A stretch of DNA of 32,000 bases from Acaryochloris marina MBIC11017 (GTDB taxonomy: Bacteria > Cyanobacteriota > Cyanobacteriia > Thermosynechococcales > Thermosynechococcaceae): assembly GCF_000018105.1 (NCBI RefSeq), contig NC_009925.1, positions 6,390,001 through 6,422,000 on the forward strand. The letters are read 5' to 3'. Numbering within the stretch: the stretch's first letter is position 1; every line of letters starts with the position of its first letter. The translations under genes and the position numbers were made by a program. The notes under the pieces are model-generated. The model was not told the origin of the DNA. It saw only the letters and a program-made list of their open reading frames with translations, and made no database searches. Shown here one piece after another: positions 6,867-28,496 of the stretch.

Positions 6867-7035
6867 CGTTCTATCACCAATGCATTGATTCATCAATCGT
6901 TGTGGTGGCTTGTTCATATGCAGGAAAGATATATCGTGCCGAGACTTTTGACCGATTGAGACGCTGAATGGTAGTCCATGAATGGCAATCAGACTTAGCT
7001 GATATGGCGCAAGGAACATGCATGGATCCAAGGGC

Positions 7036-11088: not shown

Positions 11089-11247
11089 GGTTTTAAATTA
11101 CTTTCTAAAAGAATAGTTGAGATGATTGAGGCATAATCCCTTTGTTCTACATCGTGGTGATTTAGACGTAATATGCACCTTGCCCTCAACTGCTATCGGC
11201 CTTTACCTGTCCAGAACTAGTGGAAATTCTACCCCTATAGATGTTGA

Positions 11248-11281: not shown

Positions 11282-11303
11282 CATCTATGCTCATGAATAT
11301 GGA

Positions 11304-14300: not shown

Positions 14301-15344
14301 CTGTCCATCTGGGGCAACAACGGCATACTGTTGCAGGGGACAAGGCGGTTTGCCATTGGGCGTTGCGCAGAGCACATGGTTGGCGGTTAGTACGGTGTAG
14401 GTCTTGTCTTGCTTGGCAATGAGTACTCCCGAGCCGTTGGCCCCAGTCGAGCTGTTGATCTGTAGGGTGAACGTTTTCGCTCTAGCTTCCAGATCTGCGA
14501 CCCATCCTTGAGCCTGAGCCGTTTTTACTGTAGAGGCCACCAGGGGTTGGGGTAAACCATAGGTTGCCAGTAGGTTTGGCTGAATTTGGGCCAGGACCGT
14601 TTGCAGGGGAATTCCCCAGTTCTGTTGGCGTAGGGTCTGAACCGTTTCAGGGGGAATGGCTTGACCGTCTAAGGTCTTGTAGTCATCCACGAGAGGGAAG
14701 GCACTCTGACCATTGATGCCGATCAGTTCCCCTGTGGTGGTTTCTATGATCGGCCCGCCACTCATGCCCTGTTGGATGTCTCCTGGATATCCCAGTTGAT
14801 ATCCCCCTTGAAGGGGCTGGTCAAGAATCAGTTGTACTTGATTGGGTCTGACTTGGAACTGTTGGGAGTCTGCTGCATAGCCTGCACTAATAACCGATTG
14901 ACCTTTGCGAGGGGTAAAGTTGCCTAGCTCAGGTAGCGTATAGGATTGGTTACTGACAAAGGTGACGAGTGCCAGGTCATATTTAGCGGGGAAAGGATTC
15001 TCTACCGCCTTAGCTGTATAGATTTGACCATCATGGGTTTGAATGTTTAGAGACTCTGCTCCGCGCAGAATATGGGCGTTGGTCAGCACTAGGTATTCAT
15101 TATCCTGCTTGGTGATTAGGGTTCCGCTCCCTTGATTGTTGTGGGTCTGAATCCGAACCGTAATTTCTTGAGCATAGGCGTTTACAGTGTTATCTGGATT
15201 GGCCTGGGCAATGGGAGCAACAATCGATGAATTAGGTGTTGAAGGGAGAGTTGCACTGATGGCTGGACGGAAGGCTGTCGATAAAATCAACAGGGGTAAC
15301 AAATCCACAAGAAAAGGTAAAACGGGTAGAAAACGTCGCAACAT
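11304..15344 (-). CDS. secreted dual trypsin-like serine protease fused to a long TPR array (paralogue 2)
   Basis: Same architecture as 7036-11088. By eye it is about 70-75% identical in the protease half and lower in the TPR half. Triads: LTNAHIL / YDLALVTF / GMSGGPII and LTANHVL / VDLAIFTF / GGMSGGVVLD. The tracked ORF starts at GTG 15362. ATG at 15344 (MLRRFLPVLPFLVDLLPLLILSTAFRPAISA) gives a more canonical signal peptide. Confidence 0.9.
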   Translation of the reverse strand: MLRRFLPVLPFLVDLLPLLILSTAFRPAISATLPSTPNSSIVAPIAQANPDNTVNAYAQEITVRIQTHNNQGSGTLITKQDNEYLVLTNAHILRGAESLNIQTHDGQIYTAKAVENPFPAKYDLALVTFVSNQSYTLPELGNFTPRKGQSVISAGYAADSQQFQVRPNQVQLILDQPLQGGYQLGYPGDIQQGMSGGPIIETTTGELIGINGQSAFPLVDDYKTLDGQAIPPETVQTLRQQNWGIPLQTVLAQIQPNLLATYGLPQPLVASTVKTAQAQGWVADLEARAKTFTLQINSSTGANGSGVLIAKQDKTYTVLTANHVLCATPNGKPPCPLQQYAVVAPDGQIFKVDPQTVQRQEGVDLAIFTFTSDADYALATFGDYNPRKDDEVFVAGFPKVNQSEARWQFNGGKVFDKTDGFLSVNSYSVRQNDAVFALPQANFGGGYELVYTSITYGGMSGGVVLDRQGQVIGIHGLAEGESETGNLKIQLGLSLGIPTSSVLGTLPKFNLSPELLQVSSTAPTPLSAGQQAQWQASVLQVDVPTGNAKAEVWIERGNQLWRLEQYAEALAAFDRAIQLNPSFVHLAWYGKALVYRSQENFPAAETALLKVLNLKPNYKPGWKVLSAAYRLQKKPEQALTAVNSGLKIAPTDAQLLNEKYVVLSELYRYSEALAAIDAAIAQAPRAAFYINRGWVLIKMDRYEETLTALNQAIEIDPNMAIAYTNRGVTYSFLKRPKEAIADLKKAIALDSQYISAYGGLGMLYHSQGRYQEALAQFNQGIAIDPKNPINYSGQGFVYFAQKQYQDAIAAHTKAIELEPDSANDYFSRANVYITTQQYQDAIADLTKAIRLAPPDPIYFNNRGDAYDALNQPEAALADYSQAIEVDKNNTRAYIGLGTVYQRARQYQRAIAQFDKAIEVADFPQKLETDKKYKGLAYSARGFLYSDLGKLEQAIADFSQAIELSPKVTYLYRARALNYTALNRYQEAIADYTQAIEIAPKDLSTYIRRGKIYRTLGQETEANADFQKVLTTEPSDSQGYGVRADVYKSLKRYPEALADYTKAIELAPQNPFQRSLLHSSRAQMHGNLQQYEQANLDYSKALALLPNPTVPFAADLYIARGNNFLSWQRQDDALADFNQAIGISPKNVMAYVGRGRLSLGTQKYQDALADFSTVIKLNPKLGFVYDFRSRTYQALNRIEDAIADADQWIERQANAASYTRRGILHVLGANPSLALNDFQQAITLNPKAIIPTVNLGLIYYEQGNRKQAIAQFQRAIELDGSLAEPQLALATALYHGGQQKQAIALAQSALKLDPKFQEVAFLKQNLWGERLIVDVKKLLTEPAFQAP
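11740..11747. repeat. HIP1 palindrome
   Basis: Exact GCGATCGC in the context GCGATCGCATCTT. Confidence 0.95.
12613..12620. repeat. HIP1 palindrome
   Basis: Exact GCGATCGC. Confidence 0.95.
12817..12824. repeat. HIP1 palindrome
   Basis: Exact GCGATCGC in the context GCGATCGCATCTT. Confidence 0.95.
12919..12926. repeat. HIP1 palindrome
   Basis: Exact GCGATCGC in the context GCGATCGCATCTT. Confidence 0.95.
13303..13310. repeat. HIP1 palindrome
   Basis: Exact GCGATCGC. Confidence 0.95.
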
Positions 15345-15830
15345 AGACTTTGGATGACTCACCGTAACAATGGTAAAGATAAACGTGACCTAGAGATTTA
15401 GATGTATATCGTTGACGAGGCTTTCCATATGCAACGTCTCAGTAAATTGCCGAGACTTTAAATTGATGCAGCAGATTTTTTGGCCGACTCTACTCCTTTG
15501 AGCGGCCTCATCACATGGTCATAGCTTTCAGTCCGATTACCTTTGAGATAGAGATCTGCTGCTGTCTTTAAATCAGATCGGTATGACTTTGTATGGTGAA
15601 TTTGTTTGCACTCACCAACAGATCAAGGTAGATGACCCAGAACGTTCCTTCATTGGATGGATGCATCAAGGAAATGACAGCAAGTTCAAAAGTGGTTTAT
15701 AGAAGTTGAGTGCTTATTCATTCCATCGTATAAGCTATGAAAAACTGGTGGAGAGAATGGCTAGGAGTCACTCTCTCGAAGAGATTTTGACGTGCCATCA
15801 TGGAGATTAGAGTCATTCTTTGATCCAAGT

Positions 15831-16547
15831 ATGAAACCCACCATACTCATTGTTGAAGATGAGAAAGAAATTGCTCAACTGGTTCGCAATATGCTTGAAA
15901 CTGAAGGGTTTATATGTGAAACCTTAAGCAATGGGGCAGATGCGCTGCGGGTTGTAACCGTGCTGCAACCAGACTTGGTCATATTAGATCTGATGTTGCC
16001 AGGTTTAGATGGTTTGGAAGTTTGTACCCGAATTCGTCAGCAATCACTCGCCAAGGATCCTTATATTCTGATGTTGACTGCTAGGGCTGAAGAACTTGAC
16101 CGGATCATTGGCCTTACAACCGGAGCAGATGATTACCTAACGAAACCTTTTAGCCCTAGAGAGTTAATAGCTAGGGTAAGAGCATTGTTGCGTCGGAGTT
16201 TGCGGGGTGAACAATCTGACCATTTACTCTATAGAACTGAATCTTTCACCGTTGATGTTGAGCACCATATCGCGCAAAGGCATTTGTCAGGTCAGGAGGC
16301 TGAGATGCTGGATTTAACAAGTCTTGAATTTAAGCTTTTGCAAACATTCCTGAGTTACCCTGGACGGGCCTGGAGCCGTACTCAACTCATTGATAATCTT
16401 TGGGGCAATGATTTCTTCGGAGACGATCGCGTTGTGGACACGCAGGTTGCTCGGTTGCGCAAGAAAATTGAGGTTAACCCTACCCAACCTCAATTTATTA
16501 AAACAATTCAGGGAGTGGGGTATAAGTTTGAAGACGGGCCATGCTAA
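15831..16547 (+). CDS. OmpR/PhoB-family response regulator
   Basis: Receiver domain (MKPTILIVEDE..., LVILDLMLPGLDG, YLTKPF) plus a winged-helix output domain (LTSLEFKLLQTFLSYPGRAWSRTQL...VDTQVARLRKKIE...GVGYKF). ATG at 15831 is preferred over the upstream GTG at 15792. Confidence 0.9.
   Translation: MKPTILIVEDEKEIAQLVRNMLETEGFICETLSNGADALRVVTVLQPDLVILDLMLPGLDGLEVCTRIRQQSLAKDPYILMLTARAEELDRIIGLTTGADDYLTKPFSPRELIARVRALLRRSLRGEQSDHLLYRTESFTVDVEHHIAQRHLSGQEAEMLDLTSLEFKLLQTFLSYPGRAWSRTQLIDNLWGNDFFGDDRVVDTQVARLRKKIEVNPTQPQFIKTIQGVGYKFEDGPC
16541..16547 (+). promoter_or_regulatory. 7-nt RR/HK overlap (ATGCTAA), translational coupling
   Basis: The kinase ATG at 16541 overlaps the regulator's TAA at 16545-16547. 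Confidence 0.7.
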
Positions 16548-17653
16548 AAACAATTGGTTTGAAGTCGCGATTGTTTTTCTCTCATATGCTGGTAATGTTT
16601 ATCAGCCTGGATTTTTACATCATTATTAACCGATTGACCTCCTTTAACCGTTTCAACGAAGATCTTGATCAGTTAGTGCAGCGCCAAATCGAAATTACTG
16701 AATTAAAGTCCATTCTGATTGCAGAATTCGAAACTGCTTGGCACATCAGTATGATTTGGTCCATTCTTTCAGGTGTGACTGCTGCTCTTCTATTAAGCTA
16801 TTGGGTGGCTCGACGAATTACAGCTCCCCTCATTCAGATAGAACAGACCACTAGAAAATTTGCAGATGGGCAGTTAGATATTCGTTTACCTACTAGCTCT
16901 ATTCCTGAAATCAATCGGCTCAGTCGAAGTTTTAACCGCATGGCCATGAGTTTAGAGCAGGTTGAACAAAAACGACGAGAGCTTATTGGCGATTTGGCTC
17001 ATGAATTGCGCACCCCCATGACCACTATTCGAGGCTATTTAGAAGAAATAGTAGATGAGCGCATACCTCCCACTGCGGATCTATTGGATCGCTTGATCAA
17101 AGAAGTGCGGCGGGTTGAACGATTAGTCATGGATTTGCAGCTACTTTCAAAAGCAGAAGCCGGACATTTGCCACTGCATTTACAATCAATTTCTCTAAAT
17201 TCACTTTTACTACACGTCAGCGAAAATCTCTCAACTCAATTGAGAGAAGATGGCCCCACTCTGACCTTAGACTGTCCATCTAACTTACCTCCAGTTTGGG
17301 TGGATCCTGATCGCACAGAACAAATTTTAGTGAATCTTGTTGGCAATGCCCTTCGCTATACAGAACAGGGGCAAATTGTGGTACAAGTCCGACGAGATGA
17401 TCGTAATGCTTGGGTTACGGTAGCTGATACAGGCTTAGGCATTGCTCCGAAAGATTTACCTCATGTATTTAACAGATTCTGGCGATCGCAACATTCCCGC
17501 ACCCGTCATTCAAGTGGAACTGGATTAGGATTAGCTATTACACAACGCCTAGTAGAACTGCAGGGTGGGACGATTAACGTCGATAGCCAGTTAGGTATCG
17601 GGAGTAAGTTTCAGTTTTCACTCCCTCTAACGGTATCTACGTTGACACAATAA
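16541..17653 (+). CDS. sensor histidine kinase (TM-HAMP-HisKA-HATPase)
   Basis: 370 aa with two hydrophobic segments. H-box LAHELRTPMTTIRGY has its His codon at 17000-17002. N/G boxes: LVNLVGNALRYT, DTGLGI, GTGLGLAITQRLVELQGG. Confidence 0.9.
   Translation: MLKTIGLKSRLFFSHMLVMFISLDFYIIINRLTSFNRFNEDLDQLVQRQIEITELKSILIAEFETAWHISMIWSILSGVTAALLLSYWVARRITAPLIQIEQTTRKFADGQLDIRLPTSSIPEINRLSRSFNRMAMSLEQVEQKRRELIGDLAHELRTPMTTIRGYLEEIVDERIPPTADLLDRLIKEVRRVERLVMDLQLLSKAEAGHLPLHLQSISLNSLLLHVSENLSTQLREDGPTLTLDCPSNLPPVWVDPDRTEQILVNLVGNALRYTEQGQIVVQVRRDDRNAWVTVADTGLGIAPKDLPHVFNRFWRSQHSRTRHSSGTGLGLAITQRLVELQGGTINVDSQLGIGSKFQFSLPLTVSTLTQ
17482..17489. repeat. HIP1 palindrome
   Basis: Exact GCGATCGC. Confidence 0.95.
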
Positions 17654-17911
17654 ATCGGTAGTTTTGACACAACTTTGCCACACGTGGTTGATACGCTAAT
17701 TACTTGCCTAATATGCCATTTGGAAATTCCAATGCCATCATTGGTGATTACTGTGTGTATGATCGCCACTATTTTATCCATAGAAATTAGTAAAGAGGAT
17801 CATCACTCTCTAGTTTTCAACCTCTTCTACTGAAGAACTATTGGATAAATAGTTCTAGGGTTGATTTCCTGATGGTCATAAAGAATTTTGTGTAAAAACT
17901 GGAAGATTAAC

Positions 17912-18415
17912 ATGAGTTACAACCGTGTTTTAGTAGCAATTGATACCTCATTCTCGGGTGGGGTTGTCTTTGAGCAGGCTCTAGAAACTGCTCAATTCCA
18001 CAAAGCAAAACTATATCTACTCCACTGTGTAGAAACTTCAATGCAGCGGTCTAGTTTATTAACTGCTTCCCAAACAAGAACCACCAAAGGCGCTAATTAT
18101 TTTACTCCATATGATGACGCTGATTTACAGTTCGCTCAACAAAAATGGGAGACTCAGATTGAACAAGCTAATGAGTGGCTTTTGCAATATTATCAACAAG
18201 CAACTCAGCGAGGCGTATTAGCTACCTGTGAGTCTGTTTTTGGAGCACCAGGATATCAAATTTGTACCTTGGCAAATGAATGGCAAATTGATCTAATTGT
18301 CATGGGACGTAAAGGTCACTCAGGTCTGGCAGAGCTTTTTATTGGCAGTGTGAGTAACTATGTGTTGCATCATGCACACTGTTCAGTATTGGTCGTTCAA
18401 GACCATAAAGCTTAA
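17912..18415 (+). CDS. universal stress protein (UspA family)
   Basis: MSYNRVLVAIDTS..., LYLLHCV, DLIVMGRKGHSGLAELFIGSVSNYVLHHAHCSVLVV. ATG at 17912 is preferred over TTG at 17888. Confidence 0.85.
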   Translation: MSYNRVLVAIDTSFSGGVVFEQALETAQFHKAKLYLLHCVETSMQRSSLLTASQTRTTKGANYFTPYDDADLQFAQQKWETQIEQANEWLLQYYQQATQRGVLATCESVFGAPGYQICTLANEWQIDLIVMGRKGHSGLAELFIGSVSNYVLHHAHCSVLVVQDHKA

Positions 18416-18527
18416 AGAACCCCCCTTTATGGAAAGTGTATTTGACTCGTATGAAAGCTTTGCTCTGGGCGGCTTAACTTTTATTTGAGATTTAAAGTTA
18501 ATGCATACCTTCTCCATAAGCAGATTT

Positions 18528-18560
18528 CTAAAGCCCGATTTTCGCAAAAGTGGGCTTTAG
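18528..18560 (+). terminator. long hairpin between usp and the ATPase gene (terminator or attenuator candidate)
   Basis: CTAAAGCCC (18528-18536) pairs perfectly with GGGCTTTAG (18552-18560). The 15-nt interior can extend the stem through TTTT/AAAA around a CGC loop. The sequence that follows (TGAATTTATC) is only weakly U-rich. Confidence 0.3.
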
Positions 18561-18668
18561 TGAATTTATCAAGAGATCACGAAACATCATTAATTTTACA
18601 TCCTAAAACTGAGTAGCACAAAACTCCTGGAAATAAGGAGCGATGCTTAATTAGGAGAGCTATCTAAA

Positions 18669-21401
18669 ATGCTAAAAACTATGGAGCCAGTTGAAAACTC
18701 ATCTCGCTCTTATTATCAACTTTCTGTGACGGAATCTATTGAGCTCTTTGATAGTAATTCTGAATGGGGGTTAACTTCAGAGGAAGTTGCCAATCGCTAT
18801 GAAATTTATGGCTGGAATCAGCTCCCCATAAAACCTGGAAAACCTATTTGGTTGAGATTTCTATTGCAATTTCATCAACCACTTCTCTATATTCTGTTGA
18901 TTGCAGGGGGAGTTAAGGCATTTTTAGGATCTTGGACTAATGCCGTCGTGATTTGGGGGGTGACGGTAATTAACGCTGTCATTGGTTATGTGCAAGAAGC
19001 GAAAGCAGAGGGTGCGATCGCTTCATTAGCCAAGGTCGTAACCACCGAAACTACGGTTCTACGTGATGGACAAACGCTACGAATTCCCTCCCAGGACCTC
19101 GTCCCTGGCGATATTGTTCTATTGACATCTGGGGACAAAGTACCAGCAGATTTGAGGCTTATAAGCATAAAAAATTTGCAGGCTGATGAGTCGGCATTGA
19201 CTGGGGAATCTGTACCTGTGGATAAATCTATCCAATCTTTACCAGAAGAAATTTCATTGTCAGAGCGAACCAATATGGCTTTTGCAGGCAGTTTCATCAC
19301 TTTTGGGCAAGGGACTGGGATTGTTGTTGCCACTGCAGATGCAACAGAAGTTGGGCAGATTTCTCAATCCATGATGCACAGAATTAACCTAAGTACGCCC
19401 TTGACCCGCAAATTTACTAAGTTTAGCCGCATTTTGCTCTATGGAATTTTGACCTTAGCAACCCTAACTTTTGTTATTGGGTTAGGGCAAGGAGAGTCTT
19501 GGATTTATATGTTTGAGGCTGCTGTTGCCCTAGCTGTCAGTGCGATTCCAGAAGGGTTGCCTGCTGTTGTCACGATTACTTTGGCGATTGGGGTTAATCG
19601 GATGGCACGCCGTCATGCAATTATTCGTAAGCTGCCAGCAGTTGAGGCACTGGGAGGCGCAACCGTTATTTGTTCGGATAAAACTGGAACATTAACTGAA
19701 AATCAAATGACTGTCCAATCGATTTATGCGGGAGGAATGCATTTCGAGGTGAGTGGTAGTGGCTATAGTCCCAAAGGAGACATTAGTGCTACAGACCCTT
19801 GTGATCGTGAGAAGTGGCTCGAATATCAGTTACCACCACCTCTGGAAGAGTGTCTGATAGCTGGAGCGCTTTGTAATGACTCCCAGCTTAGACAAACAGG
19901 AGACGATTGGTTAGTCGTTGGGGATCCGACAGAAGGGGCACTGATTACGGCAGCTTCTAAAGCCAGTCTCAACCAAGCCAGTCTAGTGGCGTCAAAACCT
20001 CGATTAGATGGGATTCCCTTTGAATCTCAATACCAATATATGGCAACCTTGCATGATCATGTCTCCCCAGTCATTTATATCAAAGGATCCGTAGAGGCAT
20101 TATTGGGTCGGTGCTCCCGGATGATGGGCCACGATAGTCAGACGACGGCTCTGGACGCTGTGCGAATTCAGAAGGCGGTTGAAATAATGGCAGAGCAAGG
20201 ATTGCGAGTGCTTGCCTTTGCAAAAAAAGAAATGCATATCCATCAGCATTCGATTGATCATGAAGATATTGAATCAGAACTCATGTTTTTAGGATTACAG
20301 GGGATGATTGATCCACCTCGCCCAGAGGCTATTGCTGCTGTTCATGCTTGTCAAGCGGCTGGGATCCAGATAAAAATGATTACTGGAGATCATATTGCAA
20401 CCGCTCGGACCATTGCTCAGCGCATGGGAATTCAAAAGGCTGAGCAAGTGGTGGCCTTTGGGGGGCAGCAATTAGCCAGTATGGATGATCATCAGCTTGC
20501 CCAGGCAGTTGAAGAGGGAGATGTTTTTGCCAGAATTGCTCCGACCCAAAAGCTGCGATTGGTTGAAGCACTTCAGTCTAAAGGTGAAATTGTTGCTATG
20601 ACAGGCGATGGTGTGAATGATGCGCCTGCTCTCAAACAGGCTGATATCGGGACTGCGATGGGAAAAGGCGGTACTGAGGTAGCAAGGGAAGCGGCTGATA
20701 TGCTCCTCACTGACGATAACTTTGCCTCCGTTGAGGCGGCTGTGGAAGAAGGGCGCACCGTCTATCAGAATCTGCGAAAAGCGATTGCATTTCTCCTGCC
20801 TGTCAACGGAGGTGAATCGATGACCATTTTGATTAGTGCCCTCCTGGCAAGGGATTTGCCCATCCTTTCACTCCAAATTTTGTGGCTAAACTTGATCAAC
20901 TCCCTAACAATGACAGTACCTTTGGCCTTTGAGCCGAAGTCAAAGGGGTTGATGCAGCAGCCTCCACGAAATCCCAACGAGCCCTTAATTACAGGAAAAT
21001 TATTACGCCGGATTTTGGTGGTTTCACTGTTTAATTGGATTCTGATTTTCGGTATATTTGAGTGGGCTAAATCCACTGGAAGCGATATCACCGTAGCTCG
21101 AACAATGGCCATCCAAGCCCTCGTCGCTGCTCGCATCGTCTATCTTCTTAGTATTAGCCAGTTGGGTTTGAGTTTGTTCAACTCTATTTGCCATCGGGAC
21201 TTATCGATCACCCATACTCCTATTTTGGTAATGGGGATTGTTGGAGCTGTGGCTCTTCAACTCCTTTTCAGTCAGTGGCCTGTGATGAACCAACTTTTTG
21301 AGACCGCTCCCTTAACCTTGATGCAATGGCTTATTTGCTTGTTACCGATGTTACCCATGATACCCATGGCAGCCTTGGCTAACTGGATAGATCCATCATA
21401 A
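18669..21401 (+). CDS. P2-type cation-translocating P-type ATPase (PacL / SERCA-like)
   Basis: 910 aa. Features seen: N-terminal cation-ATPase domain (GLTSEEVANRYEIYGWNQLP), TGES, and PEGLP in TM4. The phosphorylation site ICSDKTGTLTENQM has its Asp codon at 19677-19679. MITGDH and the hinge MTGDGVNDAPALKQADIG are also present. Confidence 0.92.
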   Translation: MLKTMEPVENSSRSYYQLSVTESIELFDSNSEWGLTSEEVANRYEIYGWNQLPIKPGKPIWLRFLLQFHQPLLYILLIAGGVKAFLGSWTNAVVIWGVTVINAVIGYVQEAKAEGAIASLAKVVTTETTVLRDGQTLRIPSQDLVPGDIVLLTSGDKVPADLRLISIKNLQADESALTGESVPVDKSIQSLPEEISLSERTNMAFAGSFITFGQGTGIVVATADATEVGQISQSMMHRINLSTPLTRKFTKFSRILLYGILTLATLTFVIGLGQGESWIYMFEAAVALAVSAIPEGLPAVVTITLAIGVNRMARRHAIIRKLPAVEALGGATVICSDKTGTLTENQMTVQSIYAGGMHFEVSGSGYSPKGDISATDPCDREKWLEYQLPPPLEECLIAGALCNDSQLRQTGDDWLVVGDPTEGALITAASKASLNQASLVASKPRLDGIPFESQYQYMATLHDHVSPVIYIKGSVEALLGRCSRMMGHDSQTTALDAVRIQKAVEIMAEQGLRVLAFAKKEMHIHQHSIDHEDIESELMFLGLQGMIDPPRPEAIAAVHACQAAGIQIKMITGDHIATARTIAQRMGIQKAEQVVAFGGQQLASMDDHQLAQAVEEGDVFARIAPTQKLRLVEALQSKGEIVAMTGDGVNDAPALKQADIGTAMGKGGTEVAREAADMLLTDDNFASVEAAVEEGRTVYQNLRKAIAFLLPVNGGESMTILISALLARDLPILSLQILWLNLINSLTMTVPLAFEPKSKGLMQQPPRNPNEPLITGKLLRRILVVSLFNWILIFGIFEWAKSTGSDITVARTMAIQALVAARIVYLLSISQLGLSLFNSICHRDLSITHTPILVMGIVGAVALQLLFSQWPVMNQLFETAPLTLMQWLICLLPMLPMIPMAALANWIDPS
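19014..19021. repeat. HIP1 palindrome
   Basis: Exact GCGATCGC. Confidence 0.95.
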
Positions 21402-21459
21402 TAATGATGGATAGCCACTTTCAATTGAATTACTGTTGAATACTTGATGAGGTATTGGG

Positions 21460-21897
21460 ATGAACATATTAGTTGCATTGGACCTTTCCCCATCCTCTCA
21501 AGAAATTGTGAAACAGGTAGAAGAGCTGTTCAATTTACCGCATGTGAAATTTTGGCTATTACATGTTGCAGATCCTGAACCAGAATTTATTGGATATGCA
21601 GATGGTCCTCAATATATTAGGGATGCAGTAGCTCAGGAATTTCACGCAGAACATAAAGCTATACAAGCAATAGCAACAGAGATGCGAAATGCTCAAATTG
21701 ACTGTACAGCTTTACTAATTCAGGGATATTGCCCCGACACAATTTTGTCAGAAGCTCAACGCCTCAAAGCGCACCTTATCGTCATGGGTTCTCATGGTAA
21801 AAATATGATGAAACAGCTCATTTTGGGTAGCACAAGTCAAGCGGTCATACAGGATTCGAAGATCCCTGTGTTAGTGATTCCTACAAAAACTAACTAG
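21460..21897 (+). CDS. universal stress protein (UspA family)
   Basis: MNILVALDLSPSS..., WLLHV, LIVMGSHGKNMMKQLILGSTSQAVIQDSKIPVLVI. Confidence 0.85.
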   Translation: MNILVALDLSPSSQEIVKQVEELFNLPHVKFWLLHVADPEPEFIGYADGPQYIRDAVAQEFHAEHKAIQAIATEMRNAQIDCTALLIQGYCPDTILSEAQRLKAHLIVMGSHGKNMMKQLILGSTSQAVIQDSKIPVLVIPTKTN

Positions 21898-22118
21898 GAG
21901 TCAAATGCGATTAAAATTTACCCCTGGCACATTCGCTCATAGAAACAGTTGCCATAGGTAAGATATCTGCATAATGTGGACCAAGATAAATCTTTGGCCT
22001 GGAGGGGGGAGTAGCTCAATCAACCGCGTTCAGCCCTATACTTTACTGTTTTTCCTGGAAAGATATGTTGCTATCGGGAAAATTTTCTTCGTTTTGTTTG
22101 CAGTGATCATGCACAGAG

Positions 22119-22787
22119 CTAGGGGGAGGCCGACTCTTGAGCTTGGGATAGCGATCCGTCCCCTGGAGTAGACTTCATTTGAGTTCCTGCAGATTTTCGA
22201 CGACGCGGCGGGGTGCGATCGGTAATGGGAGCACGACGAAATAACTCAGGTATCGGAACTAAGGTCTCTCCGCCAGAATTTTGCAGCAGCATATCAGCCG
22301 TCTTGCCCTTAAGAATATCCATCAGTTGGTGAAGTAGCTGATTGGGATTATCGTGGGGCTTCATGGTAAACAACTGGCGACTGCTTTCGCAGATATCATT
22401 CTCCTGGGTTAGAGCACAGACAATTGGATAGCCATTGGAGTACCCCGTTGTTAGATATTTAAGCTGTTTGGCGTCATAAAACTGTTGGAATTTGGGGGTT
22501 ACCGCTGCACATCTTTTTTGGGGATTCCAGCCAAACCGAGAGAAAAACTCAGACTTCCAACCAATAATGCGAATATTGCCTTGCCGTTGGGGAATCCAAA
22601 CAAGGGTCGCTGGAATCTCAGAACCACTGGCTGGGTCATAGACCTCTTTGCAAAAAAAGGTCACTTGATCAGGAGAAGCTGTTTGCGCTTGAGAGACAGG
22701 GGTTTGCCCCCAAGCTGGCAGACTGCTCAATGAGAGGGTGACAGCCATTGTACTGGTTAAGCCCCAATGCCAAAGATGATGCGTCAT
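22119..22787 (-). CDS. secreted COP23 (circadian oscillating protein 23)-family protein
   Basis: Signal peptide: MTHHLWHWGLTSTMAVTLSLSSLPAWG. Core pattern with four Cys that I recognise as COP23: VTFFCKEV...IPATLVW...IIGWKSEFFSRFGWNPQKRCAAVTPKFQ...GYPIVCAL...ICESSRQLFTMKPHDNP. ATG at 22787 follows AAGGAG. The longer ORF to 22862 would overlap the upstream gene. Confidence 0.65.
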   Translation of the reverse strand: MTHHLWHWGLTSTMAVTLSLSSLPAWGQTPVSQAQTASPDQVTFFCKEVYDPASGSEIPATLVWIPQRQGNIRIIGWKSEFFSRFGWNPQKRCAAVTPKFQQFYDAKQLKYLTTGYSNGYPIVCALTQENDICESSRQLFTMKPHDNPNQLLHQLMDILKGKTADMLLQNSGGETLVPIPELFRRAPITDRTPPRRRKSAGTQMKSTPGDGSLSQAQESASP

Positions 22788-22833
22788 AAGGTGGTATCTC
22801 CTTGAATTTGGTAAGCGGGTCAGCTTCACTGTC

Positions 22834-25314
22834 TTATCGTTGCGTGATGATCTGATATGCACGGGGCAAAGACCGAATCGCCAGCCCCCCTATAGCAGTC
22901 GCTATAAAAGCAATGCCCGCTGGGATAACAGGCACCCATAGGCCGCCTCCATAGAGCAGAACCGCGCATATTCCCCCTAAACTAATGAATATGCAGCTAA
23001 GTAAGGCCCATTTTATCCTGCCAGAAGACAAAGTCGAGAGACTCATATTACCGAGACTTGCCCAAACTGCGATCCACAGGGTTTCTAACCAGGTCGGCCA
23101 AAAAACGATGGCAGGCCGTCCGTCTAACATAGTGCTCAAAAGCTGACTGGTGGCGTGAGCATGTAAATAGACCCCTGGAACCATCGCCCCTGGGCTTAAG
23201 GGGGTAAGGAAATCATCTTTCCCCGGTTCAGTCACACCAATAAGAACAATCTTGTCTCGAACGGATTCACCATTAAAGATAGGGGAGAGAACCTGCCGCA
23301 GGGATTTTTGCGGTGCAATTTTGGTGACTGCCCCTCGGGGAGTATTCGATAGGCGTCGGTAGTGGAGCATGATTTGGCGACCTGCCAGAGCTTCTCCTTG
23401 CTGGCTGCGGTAAGGTCCAGAGCTTTGCTGGAGCCAGTCGCCGAGTTGAGCATCCCCAACATTCACTTCTAAGTCACCTCGCTGGAGGTTTTTACAGTCA
23501 AAGTCTTTGTTCTGGGACTGTAGGTATTGCTTTGCAATCAGCAATCCAAAGCTAAAAGCATAGTCCTCTAATTGACATTGATCCAACGACGTTGTTGTCT
23601 GAGAGTTCCGGATGGCTCCAGGTGACAAGCACGGTGACCCTGGATCAAAACTGGCTTGGTAGAGATATCTTCGGACAATGTCCTGACTAGGTGTTGCTCC
23701 GTAATCTAGAGGAACATCACTAAAGCCAATTTGATTCAGCGGCACTTCTGGGGGTGGGGCGATGCCTGAAAATGCTTCTGCAGGACGGCTGGGGGTGCAA
23801 ATACCGATGAAGTTTGTCTGACGCAGTTGATTCACTAAAGCAGAATTGGAGGCAGGAATGGGGCGAAGAATATCCAGACCAATCACACTAGGTTGGTAGG
23901 TTTGCAATTTTTCCAGCAATTGAGCAAGAGCCTTGCCAGAGAGGGAACGTCGTTGGGAGGTTCCAGGAATAATGGACCGCCCCAACCCTTGCTGGTCTTG
24001 AAACTGCATATCCTGTTGATCAATGGTGATGATTAAGAAACGCTCATCCCATTTTTCTTTGGGCTTGAACCGTAACATCAGGTCATAGGTTTTCAGCTCG
24101 ATGGATTCCATCCATCCCATTTCACGGATGCCAATGACTCCTGCTGCCACGATTAGGCTAATGCCGAGGGCAATTCCCAGACGACGACGTTTAGGGGGAG
24201 ATGGACTGGGTTGTAGAGACTGCCAGGTTGGCGGTACTTCTGTGGGGTTGGGACAGACGACCGGAAGCCAACTGGCACAGGGATAGGTTTTCTCCCAGTC
24301 ATCATGCAAAATGCGTTGGGCTTGCTGGACTGAACTATAGAGGGATTGATTTTGAGTAAACGCGTCTAAAAAAGCGCGCAGAAATTTAGGAGAGATGGCA
24401 TCCGGGAGCTTCTCGCGCATAAAGACCAAATGAGGCAAAGCGATGTTTTTCTCAGCGGCTAGCTGATGGGCTAAACCAATACCATCACAGGAGTTGAAGA
24501 TGGCAAGACGTAACCCTTTGGCGGCTGCTTCTCGCAGCGTAAATCGAAAATCAGGAATCGCCAGTTGCTCTGTTTCATTGAGCTGAATCGCAAACCGCTT
24601 GCCATCTTCTGAACTGGCGCTATGTCCGCTGAAAAAGAGAATGTCCCAGCGGTCTTGCCGCAGTACTTGATTGAGCTGCTGTGGAGTAGGAGCAACCTGC
24701 CAGACAACTTCGGCTCCGGCTTGTCCGGCAATCTGGTCCAGTAATTGTTGGTCTTCGGGTAAATGCTGCAAATCTGTGGCATGGCCCAGGATCGCTAAGA
24801 TTCGAATCTTACCTGGGTGATGGTAGGGTCTTGGAACGGTGGTGTATTGGTTTAAGGCCAAGGCAACGGTGGCCTCGATCTTTTCCACCACAGACCATCT
24901 CTCCCAGGGCAGTCGTTGTAGCCAGACATTGTCGGTCTGTATCCACAGACAAGCTTGCTGGCCTGCCATTAACAAGGCTTGGCGAATCTCTTCTAAGTCC
25001 TCTGTATTGAGCCACTGGTTCAGCTGTTTCTCGACTTGGGACGCGGTGGTGTGACAGGCTGCGATCGCATCTTCTCGTTCCGAACTATGGGTAATCTGAT
25101 CCGGGTCGCTGTGGGTTAAGGCTCGGAATAAGCTTTCTAGGCTGGCGTAGCGTTGTTGCCACTGGCGATAAGTGGCTAATAAGGCTGGATTACTGGGTAA
25201 TTTCCCCCGAACAACAGTTTGAGGTAGAGACGGCAAGTTCTCTCGAATCTCAAGTTTGACGCGAAATCCCTGTTCGAAATCGCCATCCAATTCCAGAATT
25301 AGCAGTTTCGTCAT
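22834..25314 (-). CDS. membrane protein with N-terminal cytoplasmic CHAT (caspase-like) domain, TM helix, periplasmic CHASE2 sensor domain and C-terminal TM bundle
   Basis: 826 aa. CHAT-like region is about aa 165-345 (nt ~24280-24822). It has His in DILFFSGHS (codon 24622-24624) and Cys in LAIFNSCDG (codon 24487-24489). TM1 is LGIALGISLIVAAGVIGI (about aa 379-396). The CHASE2-like region starts at LKTYDLMLRFKP...FLIITIDQQ...VIGLDI and ends in about three hydrophobic helices (aa ~741-815). Only about 10 residues follow the last helix. Confidence 0.8.
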   Translation of the reverse strand: MTKLLILELDGDFEQGFRVKLEIRENLPSLPQTVVRGKLPSNPALLATYRQWQQRYASLESLFRALTHSDPDQITHSSEREDAIAACHTTASQVEKQLNQWLNTEDLEEIRQALLMAGQQACLWIQTDNVWLQRLPWERWSVVEKIEATVALALNQYTTVPRPYHHPGKIRILAILGHATDLQHLPEDQQLLDQIAGQAGAEVVWQVAPTPQQLNQVLRQDRWDILFFSGHSASSEDGKRFAIQLNETEQLAIPDFRFTLREAAAKGLRLAIFNSCDGIGLAHQLAAEKNIALPHLVFMREKLPDAISPKFLRAFLDAFTQNQSLYSSVQQAQRILHDDWEKTYPCASWLPVVCPNPTEVPPTWQSLQPSPSPPKRRRLGIALGISLIVAAGVIGIREMGWMESIELKTYDLMLRFKPKEKWDERFLIITIDQQDMQFQDQQGLGRSIIPGTSQRRSLSGKALAQLLEKLQTYQPSVIGLDILRPIPASNSALVNQLRQTNFIGICTPSRPAEAFSGIAPPPEVPLNQIGFSDVPLDYGATPSQDIVRRYLYQASFDPGSPCLSPGAIRNSQTTTSLDQCQLEDYAFSFGLLIAKQYLQSQNKDFDCKNLQRGDLEVNVGDAQLGDWLQQSSGPYRSQQGEALAGRQIMLHYRRLSNTPRGAVTKIAPQKSLRQVLSPIFNGESVRDKIVLIGVTEPGKDDFLTPLSPGAMVPGVYLHAHATSQLLSTMLDGRPAIVFWPTWLETLWIAVWASLGNMSLSTLSSGRIKWALLSCIFISLGGICAVLLYGGGLWVPVIPAGIAFIATAIGGLAIRSLPRAYQIITQR
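25061..25068. repeat. HIP1 palindrome
   Basis: Exact GCGATCGC in the context GCGATCGCATCTT (REDAIAAC in the CHAT protein). Confidence 0.95.
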
Positions 25315-25390
25315 AGATTTAATGATTCTCGAACCTGAAACAGAGGATTGTTATGAAACGGTTGGGTTGTCCCATATTTTATCTTTAGGT

Positions 25391-26527
25391 CTATACCTGA
25401 AAGGCTTCTGATACCGAAGCTGTTCCTAAACTGACCTGTATTGTGAAGCGATCACCCGTTGATGCATCAAAGCGATACCGAATAAATTCATCATCACTGC
25501 GGCTAATCACTTCCTTAAACACGTCTCCAGAATCCGTCAGAATTTTTAGGTGTAAATCGGGGGGCAAGGTTAACCGTTCACCTGTTGGATAGACACTGGC
25601 CTGAAGATTAATTCCCGACTCCATGGCAGAAATCGTCATCATTAGGGACACCTGGCAGCCCCCTAACTCAACCCCCAAGTCGATCAGTTTAGCCCGTTTG
25701 ATTTGGGTATCCATAAACGCCCCAACTAGCTGAGGGGCAATCAGCTCATTGATGGCCTGCCAGCCTTGCTCAAACTGATGATTTAACCATTGGCTGAGCT
25801 GAATGGCTTGGGAAACAGAGGGCTGGGGTTGCGAGAGTGTGATCGCATGTCGTCGCCATTGCTGATTTCCGAGAATGCTGGCCCAAGTATTAAAGCTAAT
25901 ATGTCGAGCTGCAAAGGGTAGTGGGGTTTCCCTTAGCAAGTCCCATGCATGGGTCAATTCATCTAAGTGTGGGGCAGTTAAGGCTGAAACTCCGTCCCTA
26001 ACTTGGGTCTCAGGAAAATACTTCTGCTGCAACCACAATAAATTTAGGGTTTCGGTTAACTGCTCACGCTCCAGCCTATAGGTTCGATTTCTGGGGATAA
26101 ACTGCCCCTTTTTCTTCACGGTTTTGTGCGTGGTCACGCCCCATAACCGCAACCTTCCTTCTTCTAAATCCACCTGGACTGCTACGAAATAATCGGCTGC
26201 CAAATTGGGACTATTGACCCATTCTTGAGGAACCTGTACTCCGTCTAAATCCCAAGCTCTACTGGGTAAACAAACGAAACGAAAATTGTCGGATTCAATT
26301 CCAATACCATTCAGCCCCAACTGCCACAGATCTTGTTGCAGGTCCAGTCCCTTAGCATTGGGAAAGTATTCACGAAAATAGGGCAAAACTACCGTTTCAC
26401 AGATTTGATTTAGCGCCATAAGATCATCAATCTGTGGGGAGAGGGGACCTGTTGTCTCGTTGGAAAGGATCAGAGGTTCAGGAAGTTCTAACCAAACATG
26501 GTCAGGAGTCAAATCATAGAGACTCAT
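25391..26527 (-). CDS. DUF1822-family protein (function unknown)
   Basis: The pattern VQVPQEWVNSPNLAADYFVAVQVDLEEGRLRLWGVTTHKTVKKKGQF...RTYRLEREQL matches my recollection of cyanobacterial DUF1822 proteins. ATG at 26525-26527 overlaps the sigma gene's TGA (ATGA). The tracked ORF start at 26572 would overlap by 49 nt. That this is a real gene is high confidence; the family name is moderate. Confidence 0.7.
   Translation of the reverse strand: MSLYDLTPDHVWLELPEPLILSNETTGPLSPQIDDLMALNQICETVVLPYFREYFPNAKGLDLQQDLWQLGLNGIGIESDNFRFVCLPSRAWDLDGVQVPQEWVNSPNLAADYFVAVQVDLEEGRLRLWGVTTHKTVKKKGQFIPRNRTYRLEREQLTETLNLLWLQQKYFPETQVRDGVSALTAPHLDELTHAWDLLRETPLPFAARHISFNTWASILGNQQWRRHAITLSQPQPSVSQAIQLSQWLNHQFEQGWQAINELIAPQLVGAFMDTQIKRAKLIDLGVELGGCQVSLMMTISAMESGINLQASVYPTGERLTLPPDLHLKILTDSGDVFKEVISRSDDEFIRYRFDASTGDRFTIQVSLGTASVSEAFQV
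26524..26527 (-). promoter_or_regulatory. ATGA stop/start overlap (translational coupling of the sigma factor and DUF1822)
   Basis: On the minus strand, ATG (26527-26525) of the DUF1822 gene overlaps TGA (26526-26524) of the sigma gene. Confidence 0.7.
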
Positions 26528-27711
26528 GACTCGTTGCCTCCTGACTGGGTTTGACAAATAGACCATAGCCATTGGCTCACTGCTGCATTAATAGTTTCTA
26601 CATCGTTGACCTGGAGAGAAATATGCAGATGATCCCTAGACCATTCCAGAAAGCGATCGGTCACAATGGTTTTTACTTTATTGAGGGTACGGGACACAGT
26701 GGATTGATTAATGCCGAGCTGTTGGCTAATGTCTTTTTGTTCTTGCCCTTCCCCGTAGTAAAGCTGGACGATCGTTTTGGTGTGGACATTTAAGCGATAG
26801 GTTTTGAGGTCTAAACCCTGCCATTCTTCCCGCAACCAAGCCAAGATTTTGGTATGAATCGCACCATAATCGTGAAGGGAGTCAGCCCTCTCTGGGTCGT
26901 CTGGGGCTGCAATTACATCAATCAGTTCCTGTTGCCCTTCCGTTGAGAGGGGCTGGTTGATAGAGACTTCGGCTGGAGCCATATATCGAAAGACCGCTTG
27001 ACCACTCGTTTTGACCCATTGTTGGATGGTCTCCAGCTCTTGAGGGTGCGGCATTAAGAGGTTGTAGGTAGACACAATATCTGACCATATTTCTGGAGAG
27101 GGGGCTTGCGTTTTTCCCTCTCGTTTAATTTTCGCTGGTTTATAAAGCTCCACATAGCAATCCCAGGCCTGTAGATGACACTCCAGCAGTGAGTCCTGGA
27201 TTCCCATCGCGATTAAGGCTTTGCGGACGCGGGTCTCGCTGGTATGGAGTAACAAACTCCAAAGGGTATGACCATAGCTTTTGTCCTGACGGCGGAGTTC
27301 ATCCAGAATGCGCCATTTGAGAAAGAAGCTAGCATAAGCCCCTAAGTTGGGATTAAGGATAGGATTGAAGGAGGTCAATAGTTTCTGGAAACACAGCACG
27401 CCTTGGCTAAACAAATCGAACAATGGCCGATCATTGCGATGTTGGTAGGTGGACCAAAGTTGAGATGCAACCCGATAACACGGCTCTTGGAGATAGGCAT
27501 ATAGATGATCTCGGCTGATCGTCTGGTTATGCTGTTGCCATTGCTGATGCCAGTAAGCGACCCAATATTGACTTTCGCCGCTACTCACCTGTTGGAGACT
27601 TCTTTCCATGTGGCGGCTTAATCGTGGATCAGTTTGCCAGCGTTGAAACCGTTCCTCCGACCACGCAATAAAGGTGGAGAATTGCTCAATCAGACTCTCT
27701 CGTTTATCCAT
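26524..27711 (-). CDS. atypical sigma-70-family RNA polymerase sigma factor
   Basis: 395 aa. Region-2-like: FDLFSQGVLCFQKLLTSFNPILNPNLGAYASFFLKWRILDELRR. Region-4 HTH: IVQLYYGEGQEQKDISQQLGINQSTVSRTLNKVKTIV. There is an N-terminal W/Q-rich extension of about 90 aa and a spacer of about 150 aa between regions 2 and 4. Confidence 0.8.
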   Translation of the reverse strand: MDKRESLIEQFSTFIAWSEERFQRWQTDPRLSRHMERSLQQVSSGESQYWVAYWHQQWQQHNQTISRDHLYAYLQEPCYRVASQLWSTYQHRNDRPLFDLFSQGVLCFQKLLTSFNPILNPNLGAYASFFLKWRILDELRRQDKSYGHTLWSLLLHTSETRVRKALIAMGIQDSLLECHLQAWDCYVELYKPAKIKREGKTQAPSPEIWSDIVSTYNLLMPHPQELETIQQWVKTSGQAVFRYMAPAEVSINQPLSTEGQQELIDVIAAPDDPERADSLHDYGAIHTKILAWLREEWQGLDLKTYRLNVHTKTIVQLYYGEGQEQKDISQQLGINQSTVSRTLNKVKTIVTDRFLEWSRDHLHISLQVNDVETINAAVSQWLWSICQTQSGGNES

Positions 27712-28274
27712 AAACAGTCAAGAAACGTTATGGGGGCGTCATCCTTGAAGAGTATCGTTGGCCCCTAATCACAATATGCAGATGGACTGATGCATACTCC
27801 GTTTTTACCTCATGATACTGGTCCCTTGTAGAAGGAATCCTGTTGGTACTTCCCTGGGTAGGGGCCTCTATCCGTCTATTCACCACCAGACTATTAAGTG
27901 GAGTCTATTTTCTTTATTGACGAAATATCTTGAGAAGTAAACGCAAAAACATTTAGAAAATATAAATAATTTTGCTTTGGATGATGTTTAAAAAGGGGAT
28001 TAACTGAAAAGTGGGTTGTTATATGAATATAAACAACCTGATCTGTCCTCAGATATACGGAAGACGGCTGACCCACACCACTAAATCTCTCCATAGTTAT
28101 ACGGAAAAACCCCTGAAAACCATAGACTTCAGTATTTCTACCGTTAGCTAATGGCGTCTGGGTTGGCACTATATTACTAACCAGCTACCGTTGCGAGCTG
28201 ACTGAGGATAGTAAGGGAGACTTCCTCAAATCACATCAAATGAATACCCCTTTCTTTTTTTGGATTAGGCAATC

Positions 28275-28496
28275 ATGTCATCTTCACTTCAGCAAAAATT
28301 TATAAATTTTCTCCAAAATGATTTAGCGATTTCCACCGCAGAATTGAATGTTGCCCTGCGTCGTCAAGATCCATCGTTGGGGCAGCTACATATGGTCCTA
28401 TGGCAACATGGACTGATCAGCCTTAATCAACTCAATTCCGCCTTCGAATGGCTTGAGCGGGAAGCCTCAAATCCTTTGGAAGTGCAGGTTGCCTAA
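28275..28496 (+). CDS. DUF2949-family small protein
   Basis: 73 aa. FLQNDLAISTAELNVALRRQDPSLGQLHMVLWQHGLISLNQLNSAFEWLE resembles the conserved cyanobacterial DUF2949 pattern (LAI...ALR......LPMVLWQYGL..L.QL...FDWLE). Confidence 0.6.
   Translation: MSSSLQQKFINFLQNDLAISTAELNVALRRQDPSLGQLHMVLWQHGLISLNQLNSAFEWLEREASNPLEVQVA

Follow-up and report, generated by a model that had tools for sequence, protein, structure and literature searches.

To our knowledge, caspase homologues abound in multicellular cyanobacteria, and for almost none of them is the substrate, the trigger or the output known. The closest systems described so far are those of Kaur, Burroughs, Iyer and Aravind (eLife, 2021), whose passages on these loci place proteins made of an EACC2 domain, a caspase domain and a variable C-terminus, which may be CHASE2 with transmembrane (TM) helices, beside the genes of a sigma factor and of a DUF1822 protein, and propose, as a computational prediction only, that activation of the protease feeds a sigma-driven response (PMC8195603). 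An experimentally shown analogue is Craspase, of the type III-E CRISPR systems, in which the TPR-CHAT protease Csx29 cleaves Csx30, a binder of the sigma factor RpoE (PMC9825189, PMC9729208). Here we analyse a gene cluster in a 32,000-nt stretch of Acaryochloris marina MBIC11017 (NC_009925.1, positions 6,390,001 to 6,422,000; the window, below), which encodes a sigma-70-family factor, a DUF1822 protein, a receptor-protease with EACC2-like, CHAT and CHASE2 parts, a COP23-family protein and three secreted trypsin-like proteases (Table 1).

As far as the published passages describe them, the systems of Kaur et al. share with this cluster the CHAT protease with its dyad, the CHASE2 and TM sensor and the adjacent sigma and DUF1822 genes, and the constant N-terminal domain before CHAT matches their description in its architecture. 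The core triad of sigma factor, DUF1822 protein and CHAT protease is thus not new, being covered by that prediction and, in analogy, by Craspase. New as far as we searched are the module of COP23 and tandem-trypsin-TPR proteins, the splitting of the cluster by an insertion, and a promoter-like motif shared by its genes. The passages in question describe no shared promoter motif and know trypsin-like peptidases as C-terminal fusions only, whereas here these are encoded by neighbouring genes, and COP23 is mentioned neither in the main text of that paper nor in its 26 text-form supplementary files (PMC8195603). Literature searches brought up no experiments on CHAT-CHASE2 proteins, on orthocaspases with a sigma factor or on the cyanobacterial systems in general.

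The best explanation of the cluster is a member of the cyanobacterial EACC2-caspase/DUF1822/sigma systems, in a variant with its own extracytoplasmic output module. That a CHASE2-gated CHAT protease would control an autoregulated sigma factor, with COP23 and the secreted proteases as its regulon, strikes us as an evenly balanced proposition. The more far-reaching form of it, a complete and self-contained caspase-like pathway from receptor to transcription with a regulon that can be read from the DNA, in which the sigma factor would read TGCATA-16/17 nt-CGAT and switch on itself, DUF1822, COP23 and the secreted tandem-trypsin-TPR proteases, is less probable and put forward tentatively. If true, it would provide a bacterial chain from caspase to sigma factor to extracellular proteases, a first functional context for COP23, so far known only as a circadian-oscillating protein, and a first defined output for the widespread DUF1822/EACC2-caspase systems. 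The alternatives weighed below are partly compatible with one another, and not all of them are mutually exclusive.

Table 1. Genes of the cluster, the insertion that splits it and copies of the promoter-like motif (coordinates count from the first nucleotide of the window)
Feature	Coordinates	Strand	Description
Sigma-70-family factor	26524..27711	-	395 aa; TIGR02937 and Sigma70_r4
DUF1822 protein	25391..26527	-	378 aa, soluble; PF08852
Receptor-protease EACC2-CHAT-TM-CHASE2	22834..25314	-	826 aa; PF12770 and PF05226
COP23-family protein	22119..22787	-	222 aa, signal peptide, four Cys, extracytoplasmic; PF14218
First trypsin-TPR gene (TrpTPR-A)	11304..15362	-	1352 aa, secreted; Trypsin_2 (145.7 bits) and TPR families
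Second tandem-trypsin-TPR gene (TrpTPR-B)	7036..11088	-	1350 aa, secreted; Trypsin_2 (154.2 bits) and TPR families
Trypsin-PPC gene	ORF 5739-7070, probable start 6866	-	~375 aa, secreted; Trypsin_2 (113.4 bits) and PPC
Strain-specific 6.6-kb insertion, outside the system	15503..22099	+	OmpR-type regulator, HAMP histidine kinase, Usp, P-type ATPase, Usp (Pfam)
Motif copy 1	27754..27780	-	N13, perfect; 42 nt upstream of sigma start
Motif copy 2	26602..26627	-	N12, perfect; within 3' end of sigma gene, 74 nt upstream of DUF1822 start
Motif copy 3	22836..22861	-	N12, perfect; overlaps last receptor codons, 48 nt upstream of COP23 start
Motif copy 4	15408..15433	-	N12, perfect; 45 nt upstream of TrpTPR-A
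Motif copy 5	11151..11177	-	N13, one mismatch (CCACGAT); 62 nt upstream of TrpTPR-B
Motif copy 6	6896..6922	-	N13, perfect; 29 nt upstream of probable trypsin-PPC start 6866

The cluster and its conserved core

A preliminary description of this DNA, made from the letters alone, had singled out sigma factor, DUF1822 protein, receptor and COP23 as an operon-like quartet of co-directional minus-strand genes, and the open reading frame (ORF) listing places all four, with their junctions, where that description had them. The stop codon of the sigma gene overlaps the ATG of DUF1822 in an ATGA at 26524-26527; this start is Met16 of the longest DUF1822 ORF, and the database entry of the identical protein has 378 aa. 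Between DUF1822 and the receptor gene lies a gap of 76 nt (25315-25390). The longest COP23 ORF begins at a GTG at 22862, but the homologues have 222 aa and the real start is therefore the ATG at 22787, which yields the 46-nt gap noted earlier.

In profile searches, the domain assignments proposed for the four proteins all pass their curated cut-offs. The receptor matches CHASE2 with 178.3 bits over residues 390-755 and CHAT with 46.7 bits (cut-off 24) over residues 102-349, the CHAT domain being placed at 101-359; DUF1822 scores 201.7 bits and COP23, for which a signal peptide is also predicted as had been claimed, 126.6 bits (cut-off 27). For the sigma factor, the general sigma-70 family model scores 57 bits (cut-off 42.9) over residues 67-347 and Sigma70_r4 27.9 bits (cut-off 24.1), so that its region 4 is recognised by Pfam and its region 2 by TIGR02937 and the FliA/WhiG model, the Pfam region 2 model giving no match.

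The conservation of the cluster was followed in a profile-guided scan with one genome per species, which yielded 254 DUF1822 relatives; the best 80 loci were kept and annotated with profiles derived from the proteins of the window itself (individual loci are cited by numbers such as L092). Those of the 80 with a taxon name all belong to cyanobacteria, and a few are labelled 'uncultured bacterium' only. The order sigma, DUF1822, EACC2-CHAT is found in 72 of the 80, with CHASE2 in 56 of these, and its recurrence in so many independent cyanobacterial loci means that the linkage is not due to chance. The eight exceptions comprise three contig ends, three loci in which the sigma gene is absent or lies downstream, one whose CHAT gene lies upstream and one with no CHAT within 5 kb. 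The expected synteny across genomes thus holds for the triad, while COP23 is no part of the conserved core, and clustering of the flanking ORFs over the 80 loci gave no universal fourth gene, only lineage-restricted neighbours (HlyD, an ABC ATPase, TPS-domain proteins and, in nine loci, a small secreted protein).

Within the triad, the distance from the sigma stop codon to the DUF1822 start is at most 30 nt in 82 of 88 pairs, 12 of which overlap, where the candidate start nearest the sigma stop was chosen and the chosen starts give consistent N-terminal lengths. The spacing from DUF1822 to CHAT is far more variable, some of these genes overlapping by as much as 76 nt and others lying several kb apart. 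Judged by these gene positions, sigma factor and DUF1822 appear tightly and translationally coupled, in what is the usual signature of a sigma factor with a direct regulator.

In the window, the rest of the set continues on the same strand beyond COP23, from which the protease genes are parted by a 6.6-kb insertion (Table 1). By DNA comparison, the insertion stands in place of 184 nt in L092, which has 91% identical DNA, and both L092 and L093, two Acaryochloris relatives, have the cluster contiguous and unsplit. With the insertion lying between genes of one strand and one set, the unit spans some 22 kb of the window, where only 5.6 kb had been flagged. The gene content and linkage of the quartet are accordingly borne out, but its limits are not, as the conserved unit lacks COP23 and the unit in the window includes the proteases.

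A shared promoter-like motif and the extracytoplasmic module

Footprinting of the region 5' of the sigma gene in four Acaryochloris lineages with diverged flanks left a single invariant block, TCTGCATATT-N12-CAACGATA, about 42 nt before the start codon. We describe it in the window by the 14-nt core TGCATAT-N12/13-CAACGAT and in the surrounding Acaryochloris-like subclade by the 10-nt core TGCATA-N16/17-CGAT, usually with A as the next nucleotide. The window contains five perfect 14-nt cores and one with a single mismatch, where Markov simulations predict 0.000 perfect copies and 0.02 with at most one mismatch. The six copies all lie on the minus strand, that of the system, 29-74 nt upstream of system genes (Table 1); two mismatches bring no further copies in the window, and the 76-nt gap before the receptor gene holds none. 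A generic scan of the window for sigma70 promoters and terminators gave counts not above shuffled expectation.

The motif recurs in ten related loci, and its COP23-proximal position is also occupied in L001, L092, L093, L081, L084 and L088. Over the 13 subclade loci (210 kb) we count 32 perfect 10-nt cores, against 0.73 expected and a maximum of 4 in 100 simulations, and 30 of the 32 precede a system gene of their own strand at a distance of 29-80 nt, including both arms of the divergent locus L094. The density of the core is twelve-fold lower in the other 80 loci, among which the Microcoleus loci and L052 are exceptions with a motif upstream of sigma. The two halves are not inverted repeats, they are oriented with the genes and they are spaced like -35 and -10 elements, which together make the motif promoter-like.

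The sigma factor itself fits this picture in part. Its AlphaFold2 (AF2) model (predicted local distance difference test, pLDDT, 79.9) contains an N-terminal beta-hairpin with helices, then sigma2 (~47-142) and, where sigma3 would stand, a helical domain (150-244); a disordered linker (247-279) leads on to sigma4 (282-361) and a conserved C-terminal helix. The protein has no TM segment. The best fold matches of the model are three-domain sigma factors, with Bacillus subtilis SigD at the top and SigB, sigmaS and sigma32 beside it (310-390 columns); given these and the third helical domain, the protein is predicted not to be a minimal two-domain factor of the extracytoplasmic function (ECF) type, which is what Kaur et al. 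call the sigma factors in their passages on these systems. Its second NCBIfam match is FliA/WhiG (TIGR02479), with 40.5 bits against a subfamily cut-off of 189.6. The sigma28/FliA/SigD promoter consensus is TAAAGTTT-n11-GCCGATAA (PMC2859248), and the -10 half of our motif shares CGATA with GCCGATAA, in agreement with the nearest structural relatives of the sigma factor. The likeness to the sigma28 group therefore comprises the fold, partial profile matches and the -10 core; in contrast, the -35 half TGCATA is unrelated, the FliA_WhiG score falls below its cut-off, and neither a FlgM-like gene nor flagellar genes occur.

Read most economically, the motif would be the promoter used by the cluster's own sigma factor, which implies autoregulation, co-induction of DUF1822 and a regulon of COP23 and the secreted proteases. 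Several points weigh against it. In the Nostocales, which form the majority of the family, neither strict nor relaxed searches of L002-L080, nor inspection of 20 sigma upstream regions by eye, gave a convincing motif, and the equivalent coding segment there reads TGAATAT...CCAACC(A/T)A, without CGAT; we therefore restrict the promoter claim to the Acaryochloris-like subclade together with the Microcoleus loci and L052. The DUF1822-proximal copy falls in the sigma codons for LHISLQVND, so that protein conservation partly explains it. The motif scan of A. marina covers the 32-kb window, and the regulon may extend beyond it and lack specificity for the cluster. Finally, another sigma factor or regulator could read the motif.

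In this last case the motif would be the operator of another regulator, or the promoter of a different alternative sigma factor (e.g., a housekeeping group-3 factor), coordinating the genes from outside. The tie between motif and sigma factor is here a matter of sequence, and the Nostocales loci lack the motif although their sigma region-4 helix is similar, both of which are compatible with an outside reader. We nevertheless consider such a reader unlikely, as the motif travels with the cluster over distant lineages, mostly upstream of the cluster's own sigma gene, and is asymmetric and gene-oriented with -35/-10 spacing and a sigma28-type -10 half that fits the nearest relatives of this sigma factor.

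The three proteases of the candidate regulon (5739-15362, minus strand) all have a signal peptide and intact His/Asp/Ser motifs; in each trypsin-TPR protein the signal peptide, which in the 1350-aa protein is MMQRTLSLLSLLVLSTTLCTSASA, is followed by a tandem pair of trypsin-like domains and then by a long array of TPRs, and the start of the trypsin-PPC protein is set by the position of its signal peptide. COP23 is limited to the Acaryochloris-like subclade, where it is nearly always present and always accompanied by secreted tandem-trypsin-TPR proteins; neither an improved COP23 profile nor the search for trypsin-TPR genes found any in the 79 more distant loci L002-L080. In total we detected 22 COP23 homologues, and all five whose loci were retrieved lie in the same system. 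Trypsin-TPR orthologues occur in the cluster in L081, L084, L086-L088 and L092-L096, and trypsin-PPC orthologues in L081, L087 and L094-L096.

The order of these genes is much reshuffled. It reads TrpTPR, TrpTPR, trypsin, COP23, sigma, DUF1822, CHAT-CHASE2 in L081-83; sigma, DUF1822, CHAT-CHASE2, COP23, TrpTPR in L084 (Lyngbya confervoides); and sigma, DUF1822, TrpTPR, CHAT-CHASE2, COP23 in L088, while L087 has the trypsin and COP23 genes interposed between those of DUF1822 and the receptor, and L094 has the COP23-protease genes transcribed divergently from the triad. The full set is present in L096, which represents a second A. marina lineage; in L086 and L095 (Pannus) it is apparently split over two contigs, and L090 is without the module. 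That membership is kept despite this reshuffling is good evidence of functional linkage.

COP23, for which we found no biochemical role in the literature, had been placed, as a possibility, on the sensing side of the pathway in the preliminary description. It does share its compartment with CHASE2, but its gene is preceded by the promoter-like motif that also precedes the sigma gene, and COP23 is therefore more likely an output of the sigma factor than (only) a co-sensor. As an input, COP23 would be a periplasmic ligand or co-sensor of CHASE2, possibly processed by the trypsin-TPR proteases. Such a role, which would be compatible with a feedback loop, draws on the common compartment of COP23, the proteases and CHASE2, on the finding of COP23 and the proteases solely with CHASE2-type receptors in the subclade, and on the usual adjacency of the COP23 and receptor genes. 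We think it improbable on balance, because most CHASE2-type systems (56 loci) have neither COP23 nor trypsin genes and the motif before COP23 marks it as regulated by the pathway.

Still less probable, in our view, is a role of the system in conflict or cell death, in which the receptor would sense envelope damage or an invader molecule and a sigma-driven burst of secreted proteases would act as a lytic or defensive effector. Conflict is the theme that Kaur et al. pursue, conflict domains of the STAND, NACHT, WD40 and TIR types are found fused to related EACC2-caspase proteins, Microcoleus has diversified paralogue arrays, and strain-specific neighbours and insertions surround the cluster. However, PADLOC gives the core proteins no specific defence-system match, the CHASE2 version is single, syntenic and vertically conserved in many Nostocales, and the proteases are exported and not cytoplasmic toxins.

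Other small secreted proteins accompany the system. A family of 123-aa secreted proteins (60-72% mutual identity) is encoded beside it in L096 (751-1122 and 12853-13224) and in L088 (1631-1999); one of the two genes in L096 lies directly upstream of the sigma gene and is itself preceded, at 41 nt from its start, by the promoter-like motif. TPS-domain proteins, i.e. of the two-partner-secretion, filamentous-haemagglutinin type, flank the triad in about 15 Nostocales loci (e.g., L015 12647-13513, L002 45-2372), and in nine loci a small protein with a signal peptide is encoded 3' of the receptor gene on the same strand. Both may be lineage-specific counterparts of the COP23/protease module.

Receptor, DUF1822 protein and the proposed control of the sigma factor

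The receptor is laid out as an EACC2-like N-terminal domain (~1-78), CHAT, a first TM segment (TM1, 378-396), CHASE2 and C-terminal TM segments. TM1 follows a KRRR stretch, and past CHASE2 there are two more hydrophobic segments above threshold (769-787 and 786-804); a fourth, weaker one at ~740-760 is judged by eye from the sequence only. This arrangement puts CHAT in the cytoplasm and CHASE2 in the periplasm, as had been proposed, but the single TM helix of the earlier account was incomplete, since C-terminal segments have to be added. The catalytic dyad recognised in it, His231 (GHS) and Cys276 (FNSC), is invariant in the alignment of all 89 homologous CHAT domains.

A profile built from window residues 1-100 finds the constant N-terminal domain directly before CHAT in 96 ORFs, whatever follows CHAT; Pfam contains no EACC2 model, and the EACC2 identity of the domain is taken from this architecture. 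What follows CHAT varies among the homologues and includes NACHT, STAND-TPR-RelA/SpoT-TGS-ACT, nSTAND1-WD40, a periplasmic-binding domain and a ricin lectin, which by their sequences qualify as the swappable sensors that Kaur et al. describe. One of these proteins, of 1996 aa (L008 9081-15071), carries, after the constant N-terminal domain and CHAT, a STAND ATPase with TPRs and the whole of a RelA/SpoT-TGS-ACT module; its gene adjoins a sigma-DUF1822 pair, which suggests a possible link of the caspase system to (p)ppGpp signalling. In Microcoleus and relatives (L021, L023, L029, L038, L073 and L074), arrays of three to five EACC2-CHAT paralogues surround one sigma-DUF1822 pair; their C-termini differ (NACHT, zinc ribbon and others), they include a second full-length DUF1822 gene, and they look like several sensors converging on one output.

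DUF1822 forms a large family, with 2,368 representative clusters at E<=1e-3 in a profile search of 1.84 billion proteins. The AF2 model of the window protein (pLDDT 80.8) is not a TPR solenoid; it is predicted to consist of an alpha/beta domain (1-155), a helical middle part (161-232), a linker (233-275) and a C-terminal beta-sandwich (276-377), whereas Kaur et al., in their passages on the systems, call DUF1822 a TPR protein. Low-confidence stretches (236-239, 264-266, 268-272 and 286-288) lie inside the linker and just past it, and many homologues carry an insertion at ~270-285, in or just past the linker. Many homologues of 460-500 aa (P0113, P0114, P0118, P0125 and others) match the profile in two stretches, with the break at query positions ~270-285. 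A TPR, TRADD-N or anti-sigma assignment was tried and dropped, there being no Pfam match in any segment at E<=10. The sequence profile finds no relative in the PDB, and comparison of the model with solved structures returned generic beta-sandwich matches only.

From these parts a sequence of events can be proposed. A periplasmic cue would act on CHASE2, and the signal would pass through the membrane and activate the CHAT protease. CHAT would then cleave DUF1822, most plausibly in the exposed, length-variable linker before the beta-sandwich, or disable it otherwise, and the sigma factor would be freed. The predicted cleavage site falls at 233-285, close to a conserved IKRAKLIDLG. The sigma factor would bring RNA polymerase to the motif, raising its own level in a positive loop and that of DUF1822 as a reset, and would switch on COP23 and the secreted tandem-trypsin-TPR proteases; these products, once exported, would reach the compartment of CHASE2, where feedback on the sensor is possible. 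The outside-in pathway sketched in the preliminary description survives in its parts and general logic, which fit the synteny and the intact dyad, although the idea is not new and the input role considered there for COP23 is disfavoured.

The first three of these steps, CHASE2 gating, CHAT action on DUF1822 and release of the sigma factor, are ones that we infer, and the features of DUF1822 add to the points already raised against the proposal. In profile and fold searches it resembles no anti-sigma domain, nor Csx30 or TRADD-N, and with no hydrophobic or TM segment and no anti-sigma Pfam match at E<=10 it is not a membrane anti-sigma protein of the usual kind. Moreover, the Microcoleus arrays contain DUF1822+CHAT pairs without a sigma gene of their own, so that DUF1822 is possibly the partner of the protease in the first place and not that of the sigma factor. 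By their distribution, these pairs argue that DUF1822 may be linked to the protease at least as closely as to the sigma factor.

The sigma-less pairs count also in favour of autoproteolysis, as proposed by Kaur et al. in the passages on their systems (PMC8195603). CHAT would then cut its own chain, e.g. between the protease and TM1, and the freed EACC2-CHAT part would act on or with DUF1822 and the sigma factor, DUF1822 being an adaptor and no inhibitor. The constancy of the EACC2-CHAT module, downstream of which everything varies, and the lack of anti-sigma features in DUF1822 speak for it as well. Against it stand the tight coupling of sigma and DUF1822 genes, the usual sign of a sigma factor with a direct regulator, and the lack of evidence for a conserved self-cleavage site, and we take autoproteolysis to be an unlikely alternative to cleavage of DUF1822.

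A further possibility is that CHAT processes an inactive sigma factor directly, removing its N-terminal residues 1-45 or cutting the linker 247-279, with DUF1822 as a chaperone or targeting factor. The precedent that this resembles is the processing of pro-sigmaE and pro-sigmaK in Bacillus. The sigma factor does have an N-terminal extension of 45 residues that is conserved, R4, F11-S12-T13-F14 (FSTF) and W25 being invariant in the alignment, and a conserved C-terminal extension, neither of which belongs to the standard sigma domains. But the N-terminal extension is modelled confidently, as a packed beta-hairpin and helices and not as a free propeptide, the linker varies in sequence and length among the homologues, and no conserved cleavage motif was found. 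Of the alternatives considered, we regard this as the least probable, and indeed very improbable.

With its release of the sigma factor through cleavage of DUF1822, the proposed pathway would be formally analogous to regulated anti-sigma proteolysis. In the sigmaE-RseA-DegS/RseP and sigmaW-RsiW systems, a single-pass membrane protein with an anti-sigma domain is cut by separate serine proteases and site-2 metalloproteases. Shared with these would be an outside-in signal leading to proteolytic release of the sigma factor, and the co-transcription and autoregulation of sigma factor and regulator; in contrast, the sensor and the caspase-like protease here form one polypeptide, and the regulator would be a soluble protein with no relation to anti-sigma domains.

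As to Craspase, the likeness lies in the gene of a CHAT-family protease adjoining that of a sigma factor, together with the sigma-binding partner that in Craspase is cleaved on protease activation. There, however, activation comes from RNA-guided target binding by Cas7-11/gRAMP, here it would come from a transmembrane CHASE2 sensor, and the architecture of the Craspase sigma factor differs from that of the window. Pfam scans of the window ORFs of at least 120 aa gave no Cas-family protein (two overlapping ORFs of 121-151 aa were left unscanned, and CRISPR arrays were not searched for). There is no Csx30 chain among the profile and model matches of DUF1822, which matches no solved structure beyond the generic ones mentioned above.

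With a six-copy candidate promoter, a candidate regulon and a catalytic Cys, the locus makes an uncharacterised, widespread family of bacterial caspases directly testable. Related strains that either have or lack the 6.6-kb insertion, as well as lineages devoid of the accessory module, can serve as natural controls. If the motif is the promoter of the sigma factor, a reporter placed on it would be a direct read-out for the ligand of CHASE2 and the substrate of CHAT.

Surroundings of the cluster

Rfam found no RNA family in the window, and PADLOC, consulted for a catalogued defence system, returned generic trypsin/TPR matches and a weak 18.5-bit match to BovA only. Directly beyond the last protease gene of the cluster, a DDE transposase (DDE_Tnp_1_5 / DDE_Tnp_1) is encoded at 4543-5472 on the minus strand; together with the 6.6-kb insertion it suggests that the locus is a hotspot of rearrangement.

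At the other end, positions 29213-31264 of the plus strand encode a 683-aa protein whose C-terminus holds a cysteine protease domain of the calpain family (Peptidase_C2, 47.5 bits); its N-terminal region is toxin-leader-like by eye, for which Pfam gives no confirmation. The DNA around this gene (~28793-31435) has no counterpart in L092 and is thus strain-specific. Between it and the cluster, two small plus-strand ORFs are divergent from the sigma gene, a DUF2949-like one of 73 aa at 28275-28496 and a Cys-rich, zinc-ribbon-like one of 62 aa at 28602-28790. Both are conserved and annotated also in L092, so that what would otherwise count as a 1.5-kb intergenic region 5' of the sigma gene is not empty.

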